Of a stretch of 64,000 nt of DNA, positions 8,093-62,224 are shown one piece after another (within the stretch, counting starts at the first letter, position 1; every line of letters starts with the position of its first letter). This DNA is from a bacterium (lineage in GTDB: Bacteria > Patescibacteriota > 4484-211 > GCA-002791395): NCBI GenBank assembly GCA_027002475.1, contig JALWZS010000021.1:205-64204 (forward strand), read 5' to 3'. Made by a program: the position numbers and the translations under genes. The notes below the pieces were generated by a model, which was not told the origin of the DNA, ran no database searches, and saw only the letters and a program-made list of their open reading frames with translations.

Positions 8093-8920
8093 ATGAAGTA
8101 TAATAAAAACATGCTGCCCAAGGTTTTATATATAACCTCTCGAGTTCTTGCGATTTTGATTGGTGTAGTGGTCTTTGCATTCATCACTGAAGGATTTGGA
8201 TCGGTCACATTCACAATGAAATTAGCAGGGGCATTATTCACCCTATTAACGGCTGGAGGATTAATCTATTTCGCAATGCGCCAAAAGAATGATAGATGGC
8301 TCGCACTTCTTCCTGTCGCTTATTGGGTAGCTCTTCTTGTAATCTTTTTAATGGGAGGCTTTGTAAACGATATGAATTTTATTAGGTTCCTTTTTGTTTC
8401 ACTAGTTGCAAGTATCACAACCGCTTTAGCTTTTTACGCATGGAGAAGCAACCAACTAGGAGGCTCTATGTATGTTGCGCTAGGCGTAGTCTATATCTTT
8501 TTGGCATTTAAGCGCGTTGAGACACTTCCTTTAATCATTGTACTTACAATTTTGCTTGCTACTGGAGTTATGTTTTATCTAGGACCGAATAGGCTCAAAA
8601 AACAAATCCCAAATCCCAAGCAAGACAAACCCAACAAACAAGAAGGTGACGCAGAAACTCAAACTCTTAACCAACCTGATGAGAAAAGCCAAGAAACAAT
8701 ACAAGTAGCCCCGAAACAAGAGCCAACAAATGCACCTGTTAAACCAAAAACGCCACCTATTGAAAAAGAGCCTTCACCAATAATGCCGCCAAGTCCCCCC
8801 AAACCTAAAAAAGAGTATAATGACCTAAAAGCTGTAGACGAAGCACTACAAGGTTGGCAAAGTCTCGCACAAAAATCTGCTCCACAAAAAAGTCGAACCT
8901 TCAAAAACGTGAAAAAGTAG
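8093..8920 (+). CDS. polytopic membrane protein with Pro/Lys-rich C-terminal tail
   Basis: Five or six hydrophobic helices then a KPKTPPIEKEPSPIMPPSPPKPKKEY tail. Starts 1 nt after the serpin stop. Confidence 0.6.
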   Translation: MKYNKNMLPKVLYITSRVLAILIGVVVFAFITEGFGSVTFTMKLAGALFTLLTAGGLIYFAMRQKNDRWLALLPVAYWVALLVIFLMGGFVNDMNFIRFLFVSLVASITTALAFYAWRSNQLGGSMYVALGVVYIFLAFKRVETLPLIIVLTILLATGVMFYLGPNRLKKQIPNPKQDKPNKQEGDAETQTLNQPDEKSQETIQVAPKQEPTNAPVKPKTPPIEKEPSPIMPPSPPKPKKEYNDLKAVDEALQGWQSLAQKSAPQKSRTFKNVKK

Positions 8921-9185
8921 GGAGTTAGAGGGTTGGAGAGTTGTAGAGTTTAAGAGTTGACGTGAGAACGTCATTGCGAGCGTTAGCGTGGCAATCTCAG
9001 TGGAAAGGTTTAAAATCGCGAGGAGGAAATCGGAGATTTACGACGTGGCGATCCATTGCCCTGAGATTACTTCAGTCGCTTCACTCCTTCGTAATGACAA
9101 GCTCGTCACTGCGAGGAACATAGTGACGCGGCAGTCTCAGTTAGAAAGTTACAGAGTTGGAGTGTATGAGAGTTGTAGAGTTAGC
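8921..9185. repeat. composite intergenic repeat, copy R1 (heptad AGAGTTn arms plus GC-rich palindromic core)
   Basis: Contains gtcattgcgagcg, aatcgcgaggaggaaatcggagattt, cgtcactgcgagg, gtgacgcggcagtctcagttagaaagttacagagttggag. Its reverse complement is about 90% identical to copy R3. Confidence 0.8.
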
Positions 9186-9330
9186 GTATCCACCCCAAAA
9201 CGGGCGATGGTACTAACAAACATTCCGCTTGTGAACTACTCCTTACTTATTTCAAAAGAAACTAAAAGTAAGTAAAGAGTAGCTCGCAAAACACAATCTC
9301 ACTCACAACCACACTCACAGGAGAAACCCC

Positions 9331-9465
9331 ATGGAAGTTCGTAAATTACTAAAAGCAGCCCAAGCAATCGTAGACATTCTCACCGTTGTCACGCTCAAGC
9401 CGGTGATTGATCGCCCCAACAAGAAAAAGAAAAAAGAGACTGTAAAACCAGCCCATATCTCATAG
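9331..9465 (+). CDS. small Lys-rich protein (44 aa), not in supplied ORF track
   Basis: AGGAGA RBS 6 nt upstream of the ATG. MEVRKLLKAAQAIVDILTVVTLKPVIDRPNKKKKKETVKPAHIS. Followed by an intrinsic terminator at 9496-9514. Confidence 0.3.
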   Translation: MEVRKLLKAAQAIVDILTVVTLKPVIDRPNKKKKKETVKPAHIS

Positions 9466-9495
9466 CTGGTGAAGTCCCCGGGCAAAAAATAGTTC

Positions 9496-9514
9496 GGGGG
9501 CTTGCCCCTTTTTT
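9496..9514 (+). terminator. Rho-independent terminator
   Basis: GGGG-CTTG-CCCC hairpin followed by TTTTTT. Confidence 0.5.
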
Positions 9515-9627
9515 AACAAATGACAAAAAACAAATTCTATACTCCAAACAAAACACTAAAGTTTAGGGGGTAGGTGAATTTATCTGTTTGTTACGTTTAG
9601 TGCTTGGTATTTGTGATTTGACACTTT

Positions 9628-9922
9628 TTCAACTCTCCATCTCTTTAACTTTCTGAGACTGCCGCGCTCGTTTCTCGCTCGCAGCGACAGAGTAAAGTCC
9701 CTTTACAGTACGAATATGTCATTACGAGGAGGAAATCGGAGATTTTCAACGTGGTAATCTCAACCATACGTAGACGCTTCACAGCTACGATTGCGTCATT
9801 ACGAAGGAGCGAAACGACTGAAGTAATCTAAGGAAAGCAGATCGCCACGTCGAAAATCTCCGATTTCCTCCTCGCGATGACCTTCAAACTCTCTAACTCT
9901 CCAACCCTTTAACTCTCTAACC
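9628..9922. repeat. composite intergenic repeat, copy R2, with internal MITE-like inverted arms
   Basis: Left arm gtcattacgaggaggaaatcggagattttcaacgtggtaatctc (9717-9760) and right arm gatcgccacgtcgaaaatctccgatttcctcctcgcgatgac (9830-9871) are inverted. Flanked by aactctc heptads. Confidence 0.8.
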
Positions 9923-11002: not shown

Positions 11003-11177
11003 GGGTGTATGGTAATAGGTAAATAGGAATTAGTAAATAGCAAACTCTGTCTGAATGAGATTGTGCTATAATAATTTTACGAAGATGACCTATAGGTCGT
11101 CCCACCTTCTCAATAATTCTGCCCGTAGGCTGAAATAACCCTATATACATGAATAAAAAAGAAAGGGGGTGAGGAAA

Positions 11178-11786
11178 ATGAAGAGAATTTTGTATAGTGT
11201 GCTAAGTATAGCTGCACTAGCCGTTTTGGTCGGAGGGGCAACCTTTGCATATTTTTCTGACACAGAAACCAGCAATGGCAACACTTTCACAGCAGGAACT
11301 CTAGACCTTTTAGTTGATGGTTCCAACAATAATGTTGTGAAGTTTAATGTCACAAATATGCGACCAGGTAACCAACCTAAAGCAAGTTACCTTCTCCACA
11401 ACAACGGTACTCTAAAAGGCTATCTTGACCTCGAAAACATCTCTGTCACCAACAATGAGAACTCATGTGTTGAACCAGAAGTAGAAGCTGGTGATACAAC
11501 ATGTGGAACTGTCGGCGACGGTGAGCTACAAGATGTAGTCAACCTTCGATTGTTCATCGACTACGGAGGTGACGGATGGATCTCAACAGGTGATAAGGTG
11601 TTCTACAACGGAAAGGTAAAAAATCTTCCTTCCCATTTCGAACTAGATGAATCAATGAATGCAGGCACCGACTTACATATCGTTGCCTTATTCGACTGGT
11701 GGTCAACACCTAACGACGATCTTGCTCAAGGCGATACATTTAGCCTTGACATGACTTTCGAGCTGGCTCAAACAGCGGCTCAATAA
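11178..11786 (+). CDS. TasA/camelysin-like secreted protein with SipW-cognate-class signal peptide
   Basis: Signal peptide ending in the hallmark FAYFSDTETSNGNTFTAGTLDL. GGGGGTGAGG RBS. Start set at the ATG at 11178 rather than the GTG at 11169. Confidence 0.7.
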   Translation: MKRILYSVLSIAALAVLVGGATFAYFSDTETSNGNTFTAGTLDLLVDGSNNNVVKFNVTNMRPGNQPKASYLLHNNGTLKGYLDLENISVTNNENSCVEPEVEAGDTTCGTVGDGELQDVVNLRLFIDYGGDGWISTGDKVFYNGKVKNLPSHFELDESMNAGTDLHIVALFDWWSTPNDDLAQGDTFSLDMTFELAQTAAQ

Positions 11787-11842
11787 GTCTTGCAAGATAT
11801 ATTATGGATGGGGACGAAGCATAAAAGCCTAGTCCCCTATCC

Positions 11843-13171
11843 ATGGTGAAATCGATAAACAAACTGAAAACAAAAATGAATAGTTTACTAGAAAAAGCCA
11901 AACAAAAGTTAAAAGGTTTTAAAGAAGGGTTAAATGCAAAAATAATAATCCGCTCAGCACTAGTATTTGCAATAAGTATAGTTGCAATCTTGGTTATCTT
12001 AAGTTCTCCAATAGCCGGCGGCAAGGGCGTGGTCTTTGCTGTTTTGTCAGGTTCAATGGAGCCAAAAATCCACACAGGAAGTATTGTTGTAGTTATTCCT
12101 GCTAAAAACTATAAAATCGGAGATGTAATCACCTTTTTTGAAAAAGATAAGGAAATAACAGTTACTCATAGGATTAAAGATATCCGCAAAATCGATGGGC
12201 AAGATGTGTTCATAACAAAAGGTGATGCCAACGAAACCGAAGATAACTATCCAGTTGCTAAAAATGACGTTATTGGAAAAGTCGTATTCTCTATTCCTCT
12301 GCTAGGACGAGTTTTGCACTTTGCAAACACAGACATAGGGTTTGTAACATTCATTGTTATATCTGCAACAATTTTAATTTACGAAGAAGTACGAAAGATT
12401 AAGCAAGAAGTAAAAGACCTTGAGAAAAAGCAAAAAGTATTTACTAAAACGAAACGTGCTATAAAGAAAAAGTTCAAGAAGGTAGTGAAAAACACTAAGA
12501 AACGACTAAAAACTATTCGCAAAACATTACCATTTATTTTCACTTTAGGCATTTTGGCAGCAAGTCAAACAGTAAACGCACAAACATTAAATATTAACTG
12601 TACAAACGAAAGTTGCGTTTTATCTCCAGAGAGTTCTCCACTTTTTAGCGAAGGGAACTTAGCACCTGGTGATTTTGTACAAAGAGACCTAGAGATTTGT
12701 AACAATAAAAACACAGCAATTTCTTTATCTGTAAAATTCACGGATTACAAGAACGAGGTACCAAGCGACTTCTCCGATAAGATTTTAGTAAGTGCAGTTG
12801 ATAGCAGCGATAACTCTTTAGTTCTTAACGAACAAACAATGTCAGAACTTGAAGATAAAACAATTGAGCTCATTAGCGTAGGTAGCAACTCATGCAAAAC
12901 ACTAACCTTTACAGCAAAGCTTAGTAATGTAGGTAACGAGTATCAAAACGCCAAGCTAGGCTTTAATATAAACTGGGTTATTGAAGGCGAAGATGGAAGT
13001 CAACCGCAAGTATTATCTGTATTTGATAAAAGCGGCAACGGTGATGTGTTAGGAATGACATTGCCAGAAACAGGATTTCCTATAATTTATTTTGTTGGGA
13101 CCGGCGCAATATTTTTGCTTATTGGCTACCTACTAAAAAGCATTGCAAGCGATTTATCTAAAGACAAATAA
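11843..13171 (+). CDS. sipW: SipW-type signal peptidase I fused to an internal signal peptide, a TasA-like domain and a C-terminal LPETG sorting signal
   Basis: S26 catalytic motifs VLSGSMEP and GDANETEDNYPV with N- and C-terminal TM helices. A K-rich loop, then a second signal-like segment LPFIFTLGILAASQTVNA|Q. A domain resembling the upstream TasA-like protein. LPETG plus a hydrophobic stretch and a KSIASDLSKDK tail. Confidence 0.75.
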   Translation: MVKSINKLKTKMNSLLEKAKQKLKGFKEGLNAKIIIRSALVFAISIVAILVILSSPIAGGKGVVFAVLSGSMEPKIHTGSIVVVIPAKNYKIGDVITFFEKDKEITVTHRIKDIRKIDGQDVFITKGDANETEDNYPVAKNDVIGKVVFSIPLLGRVLHFANTDIGFVTFIVISATILIYEEVRKIKQEVKDLEKKQKVFTKTKRAIKKKFKKVVKNTKKRLKTIRKTLPFIFTLGILAASQTVNAQTLNINCTNESCVLSPESSPLFSEGNLAPGDFVQRDLEICNNKNTAISLSVKFTDYKNEVPSDFSDKILVSAVDSSDNSLVLNEQTMSELEDKTIELISVGSNSCKTLTFTAKLSNVGNEYQNAKLGFNINWVIEGEDGSQPQVLSVFDKSGNGDVLGMTLPETGFPIIYFVGTGAIFLLIGYLLKSIASDLSKDK

Positions 13172-13304: not shown

Positions 13305-14234
13305 TTACTCTTGCTCTTCCAACCACTTGCCTGCCTCAATTGCAGCGCGGCATCCTGCGCCTGCAGCAGTAATTGCTTGACGATATACAGGATCTGCTAC
13401 ATCCCCAGCAACAAACACACCATCAACGCTTGTCCTAACACCATCAGGGGTAACGACATACCCATGGCTATCAAGCTCTACTTGACCAACAAAAGGCTCT
13501 GTCATCGGGACATGACCGATTGCCAAAAACATTCCATCAACCTCTAAAATGCCTTCTTCTTGAGTTTCGTTGTTAAAAAGCCTTAGCCCTGTAACGAACT
13601 GATCACCAAGAACTTCTTTAACTTCACTATTCCAGACCACCTCAATCTTAGGATTATTTAGTGCTCTTTCTTGCATAATTTTACTTGCCCTAAACGCATC
13701 GCGCCTATGAACAATGTAAACTTTTTTAGCGTATTTTGTAAGGTAGGTAGCCTCTTCCATTGCGCTATCTCCCCCACCAATTACTGCAACGACCTTATCC
13801 TTATAAAAAGCACCGTCGCAAGTAGCACATGTAGAAACGCCTTTCCCCCAAAATGCCTGTTCAGATTCAAGCCCAAGCCTGCGAGGAGAAGAACCCGTTG
13901 CAATAATTACAGATTCAGCAAAGTATTCATTTTCATCTGTAACTAGCTTGTATGGGGATTTAGAAAAATCAACACTTCGAACAAATTCATAAACCATTTT
14001 TGCACCAAAACGCTCGGCTTGCTTTATCATATTGTCCATTAGTTTTGGTCCTTCAATTCCTTCTGGGAAACCAGGGTAGTTTTCAATAACTGTTGTGGTC
14101 ATTAGTTGCCCACCAAACTCAAAACCAGCTAAGACAATAGGATTTAATTCAGCGCGACCTGTGTAAATACCAGCAGTAAGTCCAGCTGGACCAGAACCAA
14201 CAATAATTACTTTATGGACATCGGTTGCACTCAT
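13305..14234 (-). CDS. trxB: thioredoxin reductase
   Basis: FAD motif GSGPAGLTAGIY, redox-active CATCDG and NADPH motif GGGDSAMEEA. Confidence 0.9.
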   Translation of the reverse strand: MSATDVHKVIIVGSGPAGLTAGIYTGRAELNPIVLAGFEFGGQLMTTTVIENYPGFPEGIEGPKLMDNMIKQAERFGAKMVYEFVRSVDFSKSPYKLVTDENEYFAESVIIATGSSPRRLGLESEQAFWGKGVSTCATCDGAFYKDKVVAVIGGGDSAMEEATYLTKYAKKVYIVHRRDAFRASKIMQERALNNPKIEVVWNSEVKEVLGDQFVTGLRLFNNETQEEGILEVDGMFLAIGHVPMTEPFVGQVELDSHGYVVTPDGVRTSVDGVFVAGDVADPVYRQAITAAGAGCRAAIEAGKWLEEQE

Positions 14235-14249
14235 ATAAATAACTTACCT

Positions 14250-14576
14250 TTAAGCCTGAGGCTCGCGGTATTTATTAATCAGACTCAAAAAGTCCTGCTT
14301 TGCCCTAAGACCGACAATTTGCTCAACAGGCTTTCCATCTTTAAACAAAATAACTGTTGGAATACCACGAATACCAAACATTGCTGCTAATGATGGATTT
14401 TCGTCAACGTTGACCTTTGCAACTTTAACGTCTTTTTCTTCCTGTGCGATTTCAGCAATCATAGGACCAAGAATTCTACAAGGCCCACACCAAGGCGCCC
14501 AAAAGTCAACTAGAGTTAGCCCCTTTGACTCTTGTACCTCTTTGCCAAAATTTGATTCGTTAACTTGAACTTCCAT
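14250..14576 (-). CDS. trxA: thioredoxin
   Basis: WAPWCGPCR active site. 108 aa. Confidence 0.9.
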   Translation of the reverse strand: MEVQVNESNFGKEVQESKGLTLVDFWAPWCGPCRILGPMIAEIAQEEKDVKVAKVNVDENPSLAAMFGIRGIPTVILFKDGKPVEQIVGLRAKQDFLSLINKYREPQA

Positions 14577-14684
14577 GACTACAGTATTTTAACATATTAC
14601 ATGCAAGCCGCTTTTGGCGTTATAGCAATAAATAAAACCAACCCCCAGTATCACAGCGTATTACAAGGAAAAACAGCCCCACAC

Positions 14685-14900
14685 TTTAACTCTCCAACTC
14701 TGTAACTTTCTAACTGAGACTGCCGCGTCACTATATTCCTTACAGTGACGCGCTTGTCATTACGAAGGAGTGAAGCGACTGAAGTAATCTCTGAAAAGCA
14801 GATCGCCGCGCTCCGCTCGCGATAGACGCCAAACGTCAAACCACTATACTTGCTTTGCTCCATAACTCTCCAACTCGTAACTCTACAACTCTCCCCCCCC
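14685..14900. repeat. composite intergenic repeat, copy R3
   Basis: ctctccaactctgtaactttctaactgagactgccgcgtcactat...gtcattacgaaggagtgaagcgactgaagtaatct is the reverse complement of R1. It ends with aactctacaactctccccccc. Confidence 0.8.
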
Positions 14901-14915
14901 AACCCATCCCACCCC

Positions 14916-14944
14916 TTGACAAGTCCTATAGGGTTATGTATAAT
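14916..14944 (+). promoter_or_regulatory. consensus sigma70-type promoter (TTGACA-17-TATAAT)
   Basis: TTGACA at 14916-14921, a 17-nt spacer and TATAAT at 14939-14944. Both hexamers are perfect consensus. Confidence 0.6.
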
Positions 14945-14950
14945 ACGCAC

Positions 14951-15153
14951 ATACTTCAAGGCGAAAAGCTTAAAGTATGTAGTACATTATTTAACATCAG
15001 TAAACAGCTTTGGATCCCTACCCGAAGTAAAACACATAATACTCCGAAAGACTTATGGGACACCCAAAGCATCGGAGTTTTTTATTATCCGAAACAAGAG
15101 AGATGCTCCCGTATCTACCCTAAAGGTACAGGATAATCTCTCCTGTTTTTTGT
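14951..15153 (+). ncRNA. candidate small RNA (about 135-200 nt) of unknown class
   Basis: Transcribed from the consensus promoter. No plausible RBS-led ORF. An internal hairpin CTCCGA..TCGGAG with a T-tract (about 15043-15085) and a terminal hairpin-T-tract terminator. Confidence 0.4.
15128..15153 (+). terminator. Rho-independent terminator
   Basis: ACAGGA-taatctc-TCCTGT hairpin followed by TTTTTTGT. Confidence 0.55.
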
Positions 15154-15240
15154 CTTTAACACTACAAAAGACACTAAGACAGGTAGGGATGACGTGAGTT
15201 TGTTAAACAACGTCAGGGCACCTTTAACAAGTTAGTCTAT

Positions 15241-15306
15241 ATTCTCCGGAGCTTTAGCGATAAAGAGATGATTATATTCGCCGAAGCTTTAGCGAAGGAG
15301 AAAAGA
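15241..15306. repeat. two tandem 30-33 nt direct repeats
   Basis: ccggagctttagcgataaagag and ccgaagctttagcgaaggag, 33 nt apart. Confidence 0.5.
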
Positions 15307-15484
15307 CTAGAAGATACCGAAACGATCTATACCGTACTAGGATCTTTTGGCACTAACTCGTCTAAAGGAGATTTTGCTTAGCTGATCAGAGTCATGCAGT
15401 TTATGAAATAAACTGCCTAAGTTGATTTTGCTACGCAAAATCAACGTCAACGACCTTAACAATTCATTTCAACTTAAACATTAT

Positions 15485-15594
15485 GGGTCCGTAGCTCAAA
15501 AAAGCCAGCTTTATGTAGAGCTGGTTGGCATAGAGCCCCTTCTCGCCGAGGGGCCCCCTGCGGGGGGATGCAGGTTCGAATCCTGCCGGACCCA
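15485..15594 (+). tRNA. aberrant expanded tRNA-Lys-like gene (about 110 nt); anticodon unresolved, possibly CGC
   Basis: 5' GGGTCCGTAGCTCA and 3' GCAGGTTCGAATCCTGCCGGACCCACC form a perfect 7-bp acceptor stem and a canonical T-arm, closely resembling bacterial tRNA-Lys. The D-loop carries a roughly 24-nt insertion with its own hairpin (AAAG-CCAG-CTTT). A putative anticodon arm CCCTT-CTCGCCG-AGGGG lacks position 26. A long GC variable hairpin CCCCC-TGC-GGGGG. No encoded CCA. Confidence 0.45.
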
Positions 15595-15598
15595 CCCC

Positions 15599-15628
15599 AA
15601 AAAAAGCGCGCCTCGATATGAGGCGCGC
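15599..15628 (-). terminator. strong Rho-independent terminator on the minus strand
   Basis: 9-bp GC stem GCGCGCCTC-gatat-GAGGCGCGC, preceded on the plus strand by AAAAAAA (a T-tract on the minus strand). Confidence 0.6.
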
Positions 15629-16109
15629 CAAACCTTAAGTTAGGTCTTTTTGTGTGTCTAGGTATGTAGTAACTTTACTCCATGCCCAGGCCCACAAGAG
15701 GCCAACTTTTCTTTTTTTTCCTGGGGCGTCTGTGCCCCTCTCACCAAGGAGGTGAATTATACGCAGACACTTGTAGTACCGGTCACGTGACCAAACCTAC
15801 CTTCCGTCCGTCATCCTGAAAGCTTACACCGCAAGGTGCAGCCAGGACTTGCCACAATGGCAATCGGAGGAAGTAGCAAGGAGCGGTCAACGTGGTCGTG
15901 AACAACTGAATCGGCAGCCAGTAGCGGACGCTACTGCGACTAGCCGTGCAGGGAGGATACACCCAAAAGAACTTTGTATCCGAAACGCTGAGGGTGTCAG
16001 CGTGCCATAAGGCAAAACAACACCAAGTCCGCCGCTAGTGTGCGGGCGAAAGTCCTGGAAAATGATCCAGGCCGGCACCCATGCCGCCTCTTCGAATAGG
16101 AGGAATAAA

Positions 16110-16565
16110 ATGGGTAGTAATTTTAAGAGTAAAGTAGCAGAGACCATCAAATCCGCCAAAAATATTCAGATGGCAATTAAACTCCTGAAAGAGGCGTTTG
16201 ACGTAAAGGCTGTAGCGGTAAGCTCAGCCCCAGGCCCAATCCAGCGAGCCCCCCGAGATATCGGAGTTCTGGTACAAAGAGGGTTGAAGGACAATGTCCT
16301 TATCAACCTCTACCAGAATTTCCGAGGTGGTACCGGGATGATGGGGGATCGTATCGGACCGGTCCAGTATGAGCTCATAAATGACGGTGAGCTCCCTGGG
16401 GCCATATTTACTTTTGAGGACCAAGTTTACGTCAACCGCCCCCAACTATGGTTTGTTGCCATGGCTTCGGAAGCACTGAATGAGTTCGTGCTAAATCAAA
16501 CCGAAGCCAATGAGCATCTCTTCAAAGTTGCTCGCGGCAAGAAACCTTACTCGAAACTCTACTAA
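16110..16565 (+). CDS. hypothetical protein (151 aa) inside the GC-rich non-coding island
   Basis: Perfect AGGAGG RBS 7 nt upstream of the ATG at 16110. The ORF is continuous. No recognised domain. Confidence 0.5.
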   Translation: MGSNFKSKVAETIKSAKNIQMAIKLLKEAFDVKAVAVSSAPGPIQRAPRDIGVLVQRGLKDNVLINLYQNFRGGTGMMGDRIGPVQYELINDGELPGAIFTFEDQVYVNRPQLWFVAMASEALNEFVLNQTEANEHLFKVARGKKPYSKLY

Positions 16566-17139
16566 CCTACACCCTCTCGCGCCTTCCTGCTGGGCGCATA
16601 AAAAATCAGTAGGTTGCCGGTAAGTGTCGCTTTGCGACCCCCCGCCCGGTGTAAAAAATAGGGGATATTCCTCCCTTCTCACAAGCGAATGAAGAAGGGC
16701 GCCAAGGGCTGCGTAATGCCCCCACCCGAAAACGGGTGCGTCAAATGGGTAGTAAACTACCCAATGCGCTAAGAGCTTCTTGCTCTTTTTACCGTGATAC
16801 GCGCGTCTCAAACACGGGTGCCACCTCCCCCGCGGTGGCGAAAAAATTAGGGGTTTATCTTTGGGCAGTTATGCTTCTGCCACAAAAAAAGCAGCAACGC
16901 GGCTCTGGGTTACATGCTCAGAGCCAAAAAGCGGCAAGGAGTGGTGACAGTCTCCTTGCCGGCAACACTAGCACTAACGAATCATAGGACAATCTGAAAC
17001 TCCCCAAATTATGAAACGCATTTAGATTCACAGTTACTGAGGAATATATTTGTAGTCTGCTTGTTGAGAAGTTTGCTTCTTAGCAAGGAGCCTACAAAGG
17101 CTCAAAGCCAGCCAAGAACGGTCGGATGGATATCATTCT

Positions 17140-17400
<261 letters not shown>

Positions 17401-17804
17401 CGAACTTATATGGGCGATAAGACCTTGATATCTCAACAGATATCATTGCTTCCACCAAATAGAAATCCGACCAACGCTTGGCCACAGGCGGCATTAACTC
17501 GATAGAGCTAATGCCGCCTTATTCTTACTAATGCTCCCCGCTGTGGGTTGAGTAGGGATCGCGTGTAATACATTAGACGCGACAACCCACAGCGAGTAGT
17601 GCGAGTAAGTGGCTCAAATTACAAACCATACAAACAGAACAAACCTTGCAAACAAATTACAAGCAATAAATTACAAACTTCAAACAGTCTGCAACCAAAT
17701 CTGCCCAAAGCCTAAACTATTCTATTTTGTTTAAAATTTGCAATTTGTGATTTAAAGTTTGTTTGTTATGTTTGGGATTTGGAATTTGAAGCTTGATATC
17801 CCCC

Positions 17805-18075
17805 TAACTCACTTGAGATTGCGCCGCATACTCCGTATGCTTACAGAAGAAACTGACGTTTCTTCACCGTACCCTAACCGTCACTGCGAAAGAGCAAACG
17901 CGATTGCGGCAGTCTCTACTTGTAGATTGCTTCTCCTGCCGCGGCGGGTTCGCGATGACGTTTTCACACCAACACTCAGACCCTCCAACTCTTTAACTCT
18001 TCAACTCTCCAACTTGAGATTGCTTCACCCGATATACATCGGGTTCGCAATGACGTTTGCACGTCAACTCATGAG
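17805..18075. repeat. composite intergenic repeat, copy R4
   Basis: cgtcactgcgaaagagcaaacgcgattgcggcagtct, ggttcgcgatgacg and ccaactctttaactcttcaactctccaac. cttgagattgc occurs twice. Confidence 0.75.
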
Positions 18076-42738: not shown

Positions 42739-45312
42739 TTACTTATTTGGGGATTTAGAATTAACCCATAAAACGCCACCAACAGAAAGCAACATTGCAC
42801 TAACAATTAAGCTGTATAGAGCGTTTGTTGCAGCAGTATCAGGGAGTTCGGTAGCCGCACCCAATACATCTCCCTTACCCATAGGAGCTTCTGTGGGTGT
42901 ATTTGTTGGAGTGTTGGTTGGAGTTGGAGTAGTTTTAATATCGCTCTCACCTAACACATCGCCGGTTTCTTCCGTAGGGGTTGGTGTAGTAGTTGGAGTA
43001 GGCGTATTCGTTGGGGTTGGGGTATCTGTCGGAGTGGGTGTTGGCGTATTAGTTGGCGTTGGAGTAGGTGTATCGGTTGGAGTTGGTTCCTGAGGAGTTG
43101 GGGTTGGAGTATCTGTTGGAGTAGGTTGAACTCTCGCAAATGTTGGTGTAGGGGTATTAGTTGGTGTTGGTGTGTTAGTAGGACTTGGACTTACGGTGGT
43201 AGTAGGAGATGGCTGTATTCTAGCGAATGTTGGAGTTGGTGTATTTGTTGGCATATATGTTGGTGTAGGAGTATTTGTGGGACTTGGCGTATCTGTTGGT
43301 GTTGGAGTTAAGACAGTCCTGTCCAAGGTAACTTCACACCAATCGCCCCAATCACTCGCGTTCCCAGCAGCGTCAACTGCACGAACTCGGTACTTGTAAA
43401 GTCCGTCTAAGTCTCTAATCATTCCTGTTTTCTCAGATATAGTTGGATGATCGATTATGTTACCTTCACGAATCATGTAGTCGTAGTGATCAAAGTCCGC
43501 TTCAGTGTTATCGTCCCAATCAACGGTTATCAACCGATTATCGGTTATACCACCACATCTAAGGTCGTTACCCTCATGGTCGAGGATATGAATTCCGGTA
43601 GGCGCACTTGGTGCAATGTCATAAGTTATAGAACACACATTACTCCACTCTGACACGAATTCGTTAGCATCTATTGTACGGTCTCCATCTGCATCTTTCC
43701 ACGCCCTAACCCTTGAGTAGTAAATCCCTTCGTGCCCTGTACCTCCACCAAAAGTCCGATAGTTAGTGTAAGGATTATCGTATATTTCGCTACCTCTCCA
43801 GCTTCCGTTACCGACTTTATACTGACGCTCATACCTAATGTTTGGATCTCCTAAAGCGACATCCGTCCAGTGGACTGATATCCCGTTAACACTAGTAGAG
43901 CCTCCAGTACAAGCAATTTCATTTGGAAACCTAGGAGTAGCGTAATTATCGCCATCGTTTTGGTTGTAACCAGTTTGCTCCGGCGTAGCAGGCGGCATTC
44001 CTATTGTTAGGTTAACTCTACTCCTCCAGCGTAAGTTGCCAGCCTTATCTGCAAATCTCACAACCATCTTGTACACACCATCAGGTAGATTGTTTGTTCC
44101 ATCATTAACTGGCAGGCTCCATGTCTCTGAAGCTTCATCATAAGTTGCCCAAAACGTTGCAACAAGACTATTGTCGCTCATTTTCCTAAACCTAACTCTT
44201 ATAGAGTCTATGCCAGAAAGCGCGTCACCTGCCGTACCTGTTACATCGAATGGTCCTGAGAGAAATGCACCGCTATCAGGATATGTGATTGTGGCAAAAG
44301 GCTTCGTGCTGTCATAAGTGATCTTGCAACTATCATCAAAGGTCTTGTCTCCGCCAAGTGCCCAAGCAGATTTGTTACCATTTACATCTACCGCTCTAAC
44401 GGCAAATCCGTAAGTACCTTCGTGAGGTAGCCAGCTACCATTGTATTCAAATATGGAGTCATAAAATACTCGTTCATCAATACCAATCCGACCGTTTGGC
44501 GCATCAAACGATGTGTATTCGTAGTGGTCAAAGTCGTATTCTGTATTGTCATCCCAATCAGGATGCATTCTTTGGATTGGTGAGTAAGCTCCGCATTCGT
44601 AAACTTTACTATGATCGTCACCTTGCAGTCTTCTTAAACCAGTAGGCATCGCAGGGGGAGTATTATCCTCTATGTGTGGAATGTTAAGATTAAAGGCGTG
44701 ACGATGCTTCTTTACTAACCTCACCTGCCAACAACTAGATGCTTCATCTGCCATTCCAGACCTATTCTCAACAACAGATGCCTTTGGGTGCTGTATCACA
44801 CGTCCCAACGGACCAACTGGTTTTGTGCCAACTGGAGGCATATTAAGCTCGTAGGCTAAGTCAGTGCGAACACCACATACATAATAAGTGTTACCCCATG
44901 CAAGGTTGCCAAAGTAGAAGAAACCACGTGGGAGAGTTCCACTTGTTTGCTCGCGCAAGTTCACAAAATTCCCGTTACCGTCATCCACATACAACCTAAC
45001 ACCCCAACCATTCTTAAGCGGAGACCTACCGTCTGCTATAGTAAGCAAACCATCGTCATTAGCATCTAGAAATGTAAATCCTGTAATACTTCCATTGTGA
45101 ATCGTTTTCTTAAGCGTAATCGCTTCTACGGTTTGCGAATTAGACCCAAATACAAAATATGCACCTACGGTAAGTATCGTAAAGACCAGAACGGTTAAAA
45201 ATTTATTTAATTTCGATTTGGGTTGATACATAAGCTCTAGTCCTATAGAACGAGTGCATATTAACACTATAACTACAATTTTGTCAAATGGATACATCAA
45301 AAGAGTATTCAA
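42739..45312 (-). CDS. large cell-surface protein with Fn3/Ig-like repeats, long Pro/Thr repeat stalk and C-terminal LPDTA-hydrophobic-basic sorting-like signal
   Basis: N-terminal TM or signal. Duplicated WDDNTE(Y/A)DFDHY(E/D)Y modules. About 150 aa of [16 protein letters not shown] repeats. C-terminus [35 protein letters not shown]. Confidence 0.7.
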
Positions 45313-55896: not shown

Positions 55897-57114
55897 TTAG
55901 TCTTGGTAGTTTACGGTCTTAGTTGAACCATCCCCCATCTTAAACGTAATAGTAAAATATGCACCATACATACTGGCATTAAACCTAATCTTGTTTAGAT
56001 TCTCCCAACTTGTAGAAGGATAGTAGTCACTGATATCAACATAATCACCGGAGTTAGCACGACCACTCCATCTCGTGCTTCCATCAATCTTAATACGCCT
56101 CATCTGTCTATTTGACTTAGACCATGTCACCATCATCTCATCGACGTAAATACTAGCACTCCCATCGGTACTTCGAAGTTCAATCCCCTTTAGTTCTTTT
56201 CCTGACCAGCCACCTACATATGCACCACTTGTATCAACATCCAGACAACTTGCCTGCGGATTGCAAGCGCTTGGCGTTGGGGTCGGGGTTGGCGTATCTG
56301 TTGGAGTTGGTGTGTTGGTTGGAGTTGGCGTGTTTGTAGGAGTAGCAGTTGGTCCGACCGTTGGAGTTGGAGTATTTGTAGGGGTGGGAGTATTGGTTGG
56401 TGTTGGTGTGTTAGTTGGAACAGGTGTATTGGTTGGTGTTAGTGTTGGAGTTGGTGTATTTGACGGAGTTGGTGTTGGACCAGTCGTTGGAGTTGGTGTT
56501 GGTTCGATCGTTGGAGTAGGCGTTGGTGAACTGCCAGGCGTAGCAGTCGGCGCGGAGTAACTACAGCTAACCACATTACACGAACACGATGATTCACTGA
56601 AATCAGTGTTTGTGACATTGCCAAATTGGTCTAGCGACACACTAGTTTGTCCAACCCCCTCGTAACAAAGGTTAAAGGTGAACGGGAAACTACTAATGTT
56701 AGTCACCTGCCCCGTTGGGACTTTAAAGTCAAAATTTGATTCGGTCGAAACAATACAGATCGGGCAAGAAATTATTTCTGTATCCAGTGACGGGGCAATA
56801 GCATTATCACTTTCATCGACTTGAGATATCTGGTAGCCTCTATATACTCCACTAGGATCATCAGCATACCGAAGCAGTGAAAAGCGATACTCTTGAACAA
56901 AAGTTCCATCATTTTGAACACCAGACGTCGCGTATTTATGAGTTAATCTCATGTCTGCAACAACGTCTCTAGTAGCCGAAGTTAGTTCTCTTCTGTGATT
57001 GAATTTCATCATCTGAGGGACCAAGAAAACCATCAACATAGCACTCAATCCAGCAACTATTAGCAGTTCAATTAGAGTAAATCCTTTTACTAAGCCCCGT
57101 CGTGTCTTTAGCAT
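55897..57114 (-). CDS. prepilin-type N-terminal cleavage/methylation domain protein (large type IV pilin-like, 405 aa) with Pro/Thr-rich region
   Basis: [25 protein letters not shown] class III signal. [50 protein letters not shown] stalk. C-terminal beta-rich domain. Confidence 0.7.
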
Positions 57115-61684: not shown

Positions 61685-62224
61685 CTACGGACTACAGGTG
61701 CAAGTACATGGAGTATCGTTAAACTCCCCCTTAACTATTCGACCATCTTCATATACCGTAATTGGAACGTAACCATACCCTGAATAACAAACCTTTACAG
61801 TTGTTGAACCTGACCAAGTATTATTTATAACTCGACCAGTAATGGTCTGGAAATCAATATCACTATTTTCATAGGATATAACAATTGGACATTGTACACT
61901 CGTTTTGCCCAACTCACTTCCAACACTAGCGTTTGCGTCGTCATAGCCCTGAATAAAATAGCTACTATAGCATCCAACGCTACCAGGATCAGAAAAAGCA
62001 AACTTATAATAGTCAATCTTATTAGCACCGGCGGTTTGGTTTTGTACTCCACTCCTAGCCATAGATTGAGATAGCTTCAGCGAAGACTCAACCTGTGCCG
62101 CTACATTACCGGCATCAGAGCGCTTTTGAAACTTTGAAAACTGCGGGATTGTAAACGCCGCTAACATGCCCATTAGAAGTGCAACAATCATAAGTTCTAT
62201 TAGTGTAAAACCTTTTTTAGTCAT
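61685..62224 (-). CDS. prepilin-type N-terminal cleavage/methylation domain protein (pilin/pseudopilin)
   Basis: [29 protein letters not shown]. Two Cys pairs near the C-terminus. Confidence 0.7.
   Translation of the reverse strand: MTKKGFTLIELMIVALLMGMLAAFTIPQFSKFQKRSDAGNVAAQVESSLKLSQSMARSGVQNQTAGANKIDYYKFAFSDPGSVGCYSSYFIQGYDDANASVGSELGKTSVQCPIVISYENSDIDFQTITGRVINNTWSGSTTVKVCYSGYGYVPITVYEDGRIVKGEFNDTPCTCTCSP

Follow-up and report, generated by a model that had tools for sequence, protein, structure and literature searches.

A SipW-type signal peptidase fused in frame to a putatively anchored TasA-like protein in a patescibacterial gene cluster

We analysed a 64,000-nucleotide stretch of DNA from a bacterium of the Patescibacteriota (assembly GCA_027002475.1, contig JALWZS010000021.1, positions 205 to 64,204), hereafter called the window, in which two adjacent genes lie on the plus strand. 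Gene 1 encodes a TasA-like protein with a SipW-cognate signal peptide. Gene 2 encodes a SipW-type signal peptidase that continues, within one open reading frame (ORF), into an internal signal peptide, a TasA-like domain (the passenger) and an LPETG sorting-type signal. The features of the locus are the following (TM, transmembrane segment; HMM, hidden Markov model; MFE, minimum free energy; a slash within a peptide marks a predicted cut).

11178..11786, plus strand: gene 1, predicted TasA-like (Peptidase_M73) major fibre subunit (PF12389, TIGR04088)
11178..11249, plus strand: SipW-cognate signal peptide of gene 1, MKRILYSVLSIAALAVLVGGATFA/YFSDTETSNGNTFTAGTLDL (TIGR04088 match)
11800..11848, plus strand: hairpin between gene 1 and gene 2 (MFE -27.9 kcal/mol, z = -4.0)
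11843..13171, plus strand: gene 2, ORF of the SipW::TasA-like-anchor fusion, stop included (ORF call, further assemblies)
11936..12022, plus strand: TM1, N-in signal-anchor of the peptidase, residues 32-60 (hydropathy)
12026..12322, plus strand: extracytoplasmic signal peptidase core of the S26B/endoplasmic reticulum (ER) type, residues 62-160 (TIGR02228, alignment, local HMM)
12053-12055, 12167-12169 and 12224-12226, plus strand: predicted catalytic residues S71, H109 and D128 (invariant alignment columns)
12329..12385, plus strand: TM2, returning the chain to the cytoplasm, residues 163-181 (hydropathy; aligns with TM2 of stand-alone SipW)
12386..12484, plus strand: K/E-rich cytoplasmic tail (alignment with the SipW tails of loci L004 and L005)
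12465..12488, plus strand: fusion junction (A5 run at 12467-12471; TAG-TGA in the +1 frame at 12483-12488)
12485..12580, plus strand: internal signal peptide, with n-region V or M followed by KNTKKRLKTIRKT, h-region LPFIFTLGILAA and c-region SQTVNA (aligns with N-terminal signal peptides of relatives)
12581..13060, plus strand: mature passenger, with a Cys-x4-Cys hairpin (QTLNINCTNESC) at the N-terminus and then a jelly-roll core of TasA type (alignment, AlphaFold2 (AF2), Foldseek, hhalign)
13061..13168, plus strand: C-terminal sorting-type signal (hydropathy; LPxTG columns conserved in the passenger-family alignment)
13061-13075, plus strand: LPETG, residues 407-411
13076-13135, plus strand: 20-residue hydrophobic segment after LPETG

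The product of gene 2 is 442 amino acids (aa) long and uninterrupted by stops. The same 442-aa protein was called in two further assemblies: an ENA scaffold (L001), which differs from the window by 3 mismatches in 14,300 positions, located outside gene 2, and a Logan contig (L002) assembled from another run, with 0 mismatches in 4,594 positions. Because the product is identical in all three assemblies, an assembly frameshift in gene 2 is very unlikely, and the single continuous frame described in the initial annotation stood. A sequencing or assembly artefact that merged two genes by a homopolymer error would find its opportunity in the A-rich runs that flank the junction, where stops in another frame adjoin a potential start codon. 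However, A5 runs are not error-prone in short-read data, and the ORF is the same in the NCBI contig, the ENA scaffold and the Logan assembly, which makes an artefact highly improbable. An alternative start of gene 2 lies at ATG 11876.

Gene 1 encodes 202 aa counted from ATG 11178. The mechanical ORF begins at an in-frame GTG at 11169, but ATG 11178 is the more likely start; it is preceded directly on its 5' side by GGGGGTGAGG. The identification of gene 1 as a TasA-like SipW substrate was supported by scores above cutoff for both Pfam PF12389 Peptidase_M73 (65.2 bits, cutoff 22.5) and the SipW-cognate signal TIGR04088 (42.6 bits, cutoff 19; residues 11-45 of the GTG-start ORF). Its score against the TasA equivalog NF046066 was 39.8 bits, under the cutoff of 450. 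By analogy with TasA, the signal peptide would be cut between A24 and Y25, leaving an aromatic residue at P2'.

The 3' arm of the hairpin between the two genes holds the ATG of gene 2, and no U-tract follows it. An intrinsic terminator was ruled out at this site, as the hairpin lacks the U-tract and was not called as a terminator. It is possible that the hairpin is a translational attenuator or an mRNA stabiliser. It could hold the expression of gene 2 low relative to the major subunit and, as an attenuator, may set the ratio of the major subunit to the peptidase/anchor.

The N-terminal half of gene 2 is a SipW-type S26 peptidase with a TM at both ends, as first described. Residues 39-185 scored 125 bits against TIGR02228, the archaeal-type signal peptidase I (cutoff 51.85), the peptidase core scored 158 bits against a local SipW HMM, and hydropathy placed the two TMs at residues 32-60 and 163-181. 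S71, H109 and D128 lie within SGSMEP, THR and KGDAN motifs that are invariant in an alignment including bona fide SipWs, and we take their catalytic role from published SipW work. Against the Bacillus SipW equivalog NF046067, gene 2 reached 120 bits, under the cutoff of 190; by this criterion the peptidase is SipW-like and no orthologue of Bacillus SipW. The K-rich loop seen after the peptidase proved to be a basic cytoplasmic tail, alignable with the tails of stand-alone SipWs. This K/E-rich linker corresponds to the tail with which stand-alone patescibacterial SipWs natively end.

After this tail comes the third hydrophobic stretch of gene 2 (LPFIFTLGILAA, residues 229-240). It has 12 residues by hydropathy and belongs to an element with n-h-c layout and a V-x-A site at -3/-1, with a predicted cut between A246 and Q247 (VNA/Q), in line with the AXA-site signal peptide proposed earlier. 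Because its 12 residues are below the TM threshold, we read the stretch as the h-region of a classical cleavable signal peptide, apparently too short for a TM helix. Gene 2 gave 0 matches to TIGR04088, and the passenger signal peptide is of the generic AXA type. If the signal remained uncut, gene 2 would be a permanent four-TM protein that keeps its TasA-like domain tethered next to the active site of the peptidase, where this domain would serve as a platform for assembly or as a module that docks gene 1 as substrate. Such an arrangement is consistent with the strongly basic n-region before the hydrophobic stretch, with a passenger signal that is not SipW-cognate, with the third segment acting as a stable signal-anchor in SipW::sortase fusions, and with a weakly charged C-terminal tail that HMMs of LPXTG signals do not recognise. 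We nevertheless consider it improbable, given that the h-region stays under the TM threshold, that V-N-A/Q is a canonical site, and that the segment aligns column by column with the cleavable signal peptides and the mature N-terminus (A/ADLxIxC) of relatives.

The mature passenger carries the core motifs PLFxExNxxPGD and VGNEYQ..LxF. Its AF2 model had a predicted local distance difference test (pLDDT) score of 83.8, whereas single-sequence AlphaFold of the whole gene 2 protein reached pLDDT 50 and was unusable. The top Foldseek match of the passenger was TasA (5OF1, E 3.9e-4), by a small margin over generic beta-sandwiches, and AbpA (7UEG) was among its fold matches. In hhalign, the passenger family matched the TasA-like major subunits of the operons at 98.1% (E 9.4e-14, 118 columns); this match covers the jelly-roll core only and begins after gene 1 residue 53. 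When the family profile was compared with PDB sequences, TasA ranked first, yet with E ~0.7-1. The weak point is PF12389, against which the passenger scored 20.6 bits (E 4e-4), just under the cutoff of 22.5. The beta domain called TasA-like in the initial annotation is thus supported by the fold match and by profile-profile comparison, but not by the Pfam HMM.

The passenger lacks the xFSDTETS..TAGTLDL segment and has QTLNINCTNESC as its own N-terminus. A segment of the missing type becomes the donor strand in TasA (PMC9674648). Taken together, these comparisons indicate that the passenger is a real TasA homologue without the N-terminal donor-strand segment. We ruled out that it is a TapA: gene 2 had no match to TIGR04087 at E <= 1, and genuine TapAs in other loci scored 180 bits (L003) and 88 bits (L006).

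At the C-terminus, hydropathy placed TM4 at residues 411-436, followed by the tail KSIASDLSKDK. A related ending was observed elsewhere in the window. An 857-aa protein (42739-45312, minus strand) with the Ig-like domains Big_3_2 and Big_13 ends in GDVLG..LPDTA, a TM segment and KSPNK, which resembles the extended signal of gene 2 (GDVLG..LP[ED]T-TM-basic tail), and scored 15.6 bits against TIGR01167 (cutoff 15.9). From its sequence, it is a probable second sortase-type substrate and adhesin, and its tail argues that the organism uses such a sorting-type signal.

To find relatives of the passenger, we ran an exhaustive phmmer search with gene 2 residues 224-442 (E <= 1e-3). It found 231 relatives; 150 were listed and 149 of these were checked for motifs. 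An indexed homologue search with the passenger fragment alone returned no matches, and Pfam scans of ten relatives returned sub-threshold matches only. In nearly all of the 150 listed relatives the matching region starts with the relative's own signal peptide at its N-terminus, and only in the window protein is it internal. The relatives share an AXA-site signal peptide, the mature N-terminus A/ADLxIxCxxxxC..PLFxExNxxPGD and the VGNEYQ..LxFD motif, and 34/149 carry VLG..LPxTG near the C-terminus, ahead of a TM segment and a basic tail. The passenger is a member of an unnamed family whose inspected members are stand-alone secreted proteins.

We also scanned species-representative genomes with the SipW core, obtained >527 matches, and examined the best 80 loci, most of them from Patescibacteria. 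SipW is a separate ORF in these 80 loci (median 184 aa), and 4/82 SipW ORFs have >= 240 aa. A passenger-family ORF follows sipW on the same strand in 60/80 loci, and 51 of these 60 ORFs end in a TM segment and basic tail. The passenger-family gene is the first or second gene after a separate sipW and belongs to a co-directional cluster that runs from TasA-like genes through sipW, a large protein and the passenger-family gene, sometimes to a sortase. A sortase lies directly downstream of the passenger-family gene in L004, L031, L056 and L058, and adjoins homologous genes in L003 too; in 3/80 loci with this arrangement the motif before the TM is LAPTG, LVATG or LAATG. The order in the Microgenomates locus L004 is TasA-like, SipW, LTD protein, passenger-family member and sortase, and the Roizmanbacteria locus L005 is similar. 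The cluster is also found in some Firmicutes. In Ornithinibacillus halophilus the order is sortase, TasA-like, TapA, SipW, passenger-family member and SinR/SinI, with scores of 180 bits for TapA, 317 bits for SipW and 37.9 bits for the LPxTATN sorting signal of the family member. Since relatives encode the passenger downstream of a separate sipW, gene 2 is a fusion that unites sipW with one of its operon neighbours.

The DNA at the junction reads AAG AAG GTA GTG AAA, and its in-frame GTG at 12485 shares bases with TAG-TGA of the +1 frame. Followed upstream, the +1 frame stays open only as far as 12465, within the A5 run. Stop/start overlaps are frequent at the junction of sipW and the downstream gene in relatives (for example, ATGA in L004), and the overlap in gene 2 is a candidate relic of a sipW stop that overlapped the passenger start. 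Because the +1-frame stops overlap the GTG and the frame is open only to the A5 run, a single-base indel would be enough to create the fusion, and the sequence suggests that a 1-nt indel in the A-run just upstream of the TAGTG stop/start overlap probably did so.

The same observations allow the fusion to be a recent accident, neutral or mildly harmful, in which the indel joined sipW to the next gene and the product has no function as a fusion. The peptidase would still work, and the passenger would be processed as before or translated separately from GTG 12485. Besides the overlapping stops, the frame open only from the A5 run 18 nt upstream and the usual overlaps in relatives, this explanation accounts for the fusion having no counterpart in the 150 listed passenger relatives, in 60 other SipW homologues or in 80 genomic SipW loci, and for AAGAAGG preceding GTG 12485. 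Yet this Shine-Dalgarno-like element is just 2 nt from the GTG, the motifs of both halves are all intact, the sequence is identical in three assemblies, and analogous SipW fusions persist over many clusters and contigs. We consider a functionless fusion unlikely. The origin that it assumes fits the best explanation too, and the only point at issue is whether being fused is adaptive.

The 60 other SipW homologues show how general such extensions are. None of them (0/60) carries the same passenger, and no second such fusion was found among them, but 33/60 have a third hydrophobic segment after the basic tail. By a strict regular expression, at least 9 of these 33 show a SipW-cognate-like motif after the third segment, such as GFFSDTERGSANF, AFFSDIEATSGNS and AYYSDTADLTGNT. 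Among the elongated SipWs, four are fused to a sortase domain, and others have the variant ASFTSGQATITGV, similar to AAFTSNSVTITGV of the major subunit in locus L087. This locus carries P0041, a SipW::LTD fusion present on 12 contigs between a TasA-like gene and a passenger-family gene. The other SipW fusions occupy the equivalent place in the operon, with an xFSDxE-type cognate site retained behind the third hydrophobic segment in many of them.

Compared with gene 2, the patescibacterial SipW fusions (to LTD, to a cognate-signal peptide or to sortase) have the same layout of TM1, peptidase, TM2, basic tail, third segment and extracellular module, and they take as partner the gene that ordinarily comes next after sipW; a SipW-cognate site after the third segment is retained in many. 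Gene 2 differs in its partner, a C-terminally anchored passenger-family protein with a generic AXA signal. Since SipW has both termini in the cytoplasm (N-in/C-in), the topology is kept whenever the added partner brings its own N-terminal signal peptide, which probably explains why fusions are tolerated.

Several further variants were observed. SipW and sortase are joined in single polypeptides (P0036, P0045, P0049 and P0052; locus L089, 2038-3453) with the layout TM1, peptidase, TM2, signal-anchor and sortase domain; they would be bifunctional enzymes of processing and anchoring. In the Shapirobacteria locus L074 (4920-7141), a SipW ORF of 579 aa abuts a 160-aa passenger-family ORF that starts without a signal peptide, possibly as a further fusion or as a frameshifted version of the same operon. 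In P0004 (L088, 6001-6867) and P0013, the SipW extension consists only of a SipW-cognate signal peptide and a peptide of ~30-45 residues, and cleavage would release a very small secreted product.

A broader proposal is that SipW-substrate polyproteins are a recurrent, selected architecture of Patescibacteria, in which the peptidase is made in one chain with a substrate encoded in its operon and releases that substrate at the membrane, acting in cis or inside an oligomer. We regard this as tentative and somewhat doubtful. If true, peptidase and fibre anchor would be made in a fixed 1:1 ratio, the fibre base would sit where processing takes place, and this would be the first demonstrated case of a type I signal peptidase acting on its own chain. 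The SipW::sortase fusions would then further suggest a physically coupled machine of secretion, processing and anchoring.

For the window itself, we think it probable that the locus is a minimal TasA-type fibre operon of a Patescibacteria-like bacterium, and that gene 2 is a natural in-frame fusion of sipW with an anchored accessory protein of TasA fold, working as follows. Gene 1 would be the major subunit, exported via its SipW-type signal peptide, and its new N-terminus would become the donor strand. Gene 2 would insert in the order in-TM1-out(peptidase)-TM2-in-signal peptide-out(TasA-like)-LPETG-TM4-in. Because the SipW half ends in the cytoplasm, the passenger signal peptide can re-insert from in to out and would export the TasA-like domain with both halves undisturbed; the in-out-in-out-in topology proposed at the outset is self-consistent for this reason. 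A signal peptidase would then cut after A246, the enzyme being the fused SipW domain of either the same chain (in cis) or an adjacent molecule, and the freed passenger would remain attached via the C-terminal TM4. If the genome encodes a sortase, this enzyme would transfer the passenger to the wall through LPETG. The passenger would then serve as the acceptor or cap subunit next to the cell, holding gene 1 fibres built by donor-strand exchange: with a TasA acceptor core and no donor strand, it would cap the fibre end that exposes a free donor strand. Basal pilins (e.g., SpaB) are minor LPXTG subunits that fix the base of sortase-assembled Gram-positive pili to the wall. The passenger would resemble them in working only, as those fibres are covalent via pilin sortases and have a different fold, and we do not claim membership.

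Several observations weigh against this model. Self-cleavage, sortase anchoring and the fibre-base role of gene 2 are all steps that we infer. The generic AXA signal of the passenger could be cut by a LepB-type enzyme, or by none; phmmer found no LepB-type S26 peptidase in the window. No sortase was found in the 64-kb window by TLxTC regular expression, tblastn or HMM, in agreement with the initial annotation. The LPETG, hydrophobic stretch and basic tail that it described are present, but the tail has a net charge of just +1, and neither TIGR01167 nor PF00746 Gram_pos_anchor matched it in isolation. Most patescibacterial passenger-family members are anchored by a TM only, without LPxTG. Finally, single-protein scans of genome and metagenome contig collections found no close relatives of the fusion; the fused state is a singleton, and selection for it is not demonstrated.

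The closest known system is tapA-sipW-tasA of Bacillus subtilis. Both loci place an ER-type signal peptidase gene beside a TasA-family substrate with a TIGR04088-type signal, and both have a minor cell-associated accessory subunit. In B. subtilis, the TasA fibre is built by donor-strand exchange (PMC9674648, PMC10151520), and a TapA-type strand donor serves the fibre end opposite to that proposed for the passenger (PMC10151520). Unlike B. subtilis, the window locus has no TapA homologue, its SipW (120 bits) is under the 190-bit equivalog cutoff, and its accessory protein has a TasA fold without a donor strand, an LPETG tail and a fusion to SipW. The Ornithinibacillus operon, with true TapA and SipW, also holds a passenger-family member.

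The sipW-bsaA-bsaB-bsaC operon of Clostridium perfringens, with srtB adjacent, encodes TasA-like paralogues, one with LPXTG in most strains, and TasA-family operons combining LPxTG proteins, a signal peptidase and a sortase have already been noted in C. perfringens and relatives (PMC11580942, PMC7395162). The genes are separate there and BsaA polymers are locked by isopeptide bonds, whereas the window has no visible sortase. Pyrobaculum AbpA, a jelly-roll subunit resembling TasA, assembles by donor-strand exchange, and an accessory protein encoded downstream has been proposed as cap or nucleator of the fibre (PMC9245690). The AbpA/AbpB system has no dedicated peptidase and no LPXTG signal, and its likeness to the window locus is at the fold level only. 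TasA homologues in Patescibacteria were noted earlier (PMC9245690). Because these homologues and operons of sipW, TasA, LPXTG proteins and sortase have been described, the whole system is of a known kind.

Other features of the window were recorded around the locus. A repeat family of ~100 nt, with the core GTCATTACGAAGGAG(C/T)GAA(A/G)CGACTGAAGTAATCT, has three copies (9044-9165, 9779-9878 and 14689-14810), with none expected by chance, in the long intergenic regions that flank the ychF-tasA-sipW-trxB-trx block. The two outer copies are inverted relative to each other (122 nt, 89% complementary), and the stretch 8918-9919 contains additional nested inverted repeats. The family had no Rfam match. 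Upstream of the locus is a serpin-family gene (PF00079; 6682-8091, plus strand), whose product has an N-terminal TM and a linker rich in Pro and Thr. A 98-nt piece of bacterial 23S rRNA (17201-17298, plus strand; model positions 1071-1168) was the only piece to reach the Rfam threshold, in a zone of higher GC (0.45-0.48 over 14000-18000); it is either an isolated rRNA fragment or part of a heavily interrupted rRNA gene, as reported in CPR bacteria. A tRNA match of 110 nt to a 71-nt model (15485-15594, plus strand) suggests an intron or long insertion. Two type IV pilin-like ORFs (55897-57114 and 61685-62224, minus strand) carry N-terminal methylation motifs KGFTLIEL..., and the organism therefore probably makes type IV pili besides the TasA-type fibre.

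In our literature search, we found no description of a signal peptidase fused to a substrate or partner of its own operon, of the passenger family as a donor-strand-less, C-terminally anchored component of TasA fold, or of the breadth of cluster conservation in Patescibacteria. The unnamed passenger family, with 231 detected relatives, merits a family definition. A signal peptidase that tolerates fusion to proteins of its own operon, and repeatedly, provides a compact natural construct for cis versus trans cleavage. TasA-type fibres serve as a central model for the biofilm matrix of Gram-positive bacteria, and their attachment to the cell is still debated. Patescibacteria are ultrasmall, and their surface appendages are thought to mediate host attachment. 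The wide conservation in this phylum of a TasA/SipW cluster with an anchored, donor-strand-less subunit of TasA fold suggests an answer to the anchoring question, namely an acceptor-only subunit fixed by a TM segment or by sortase.

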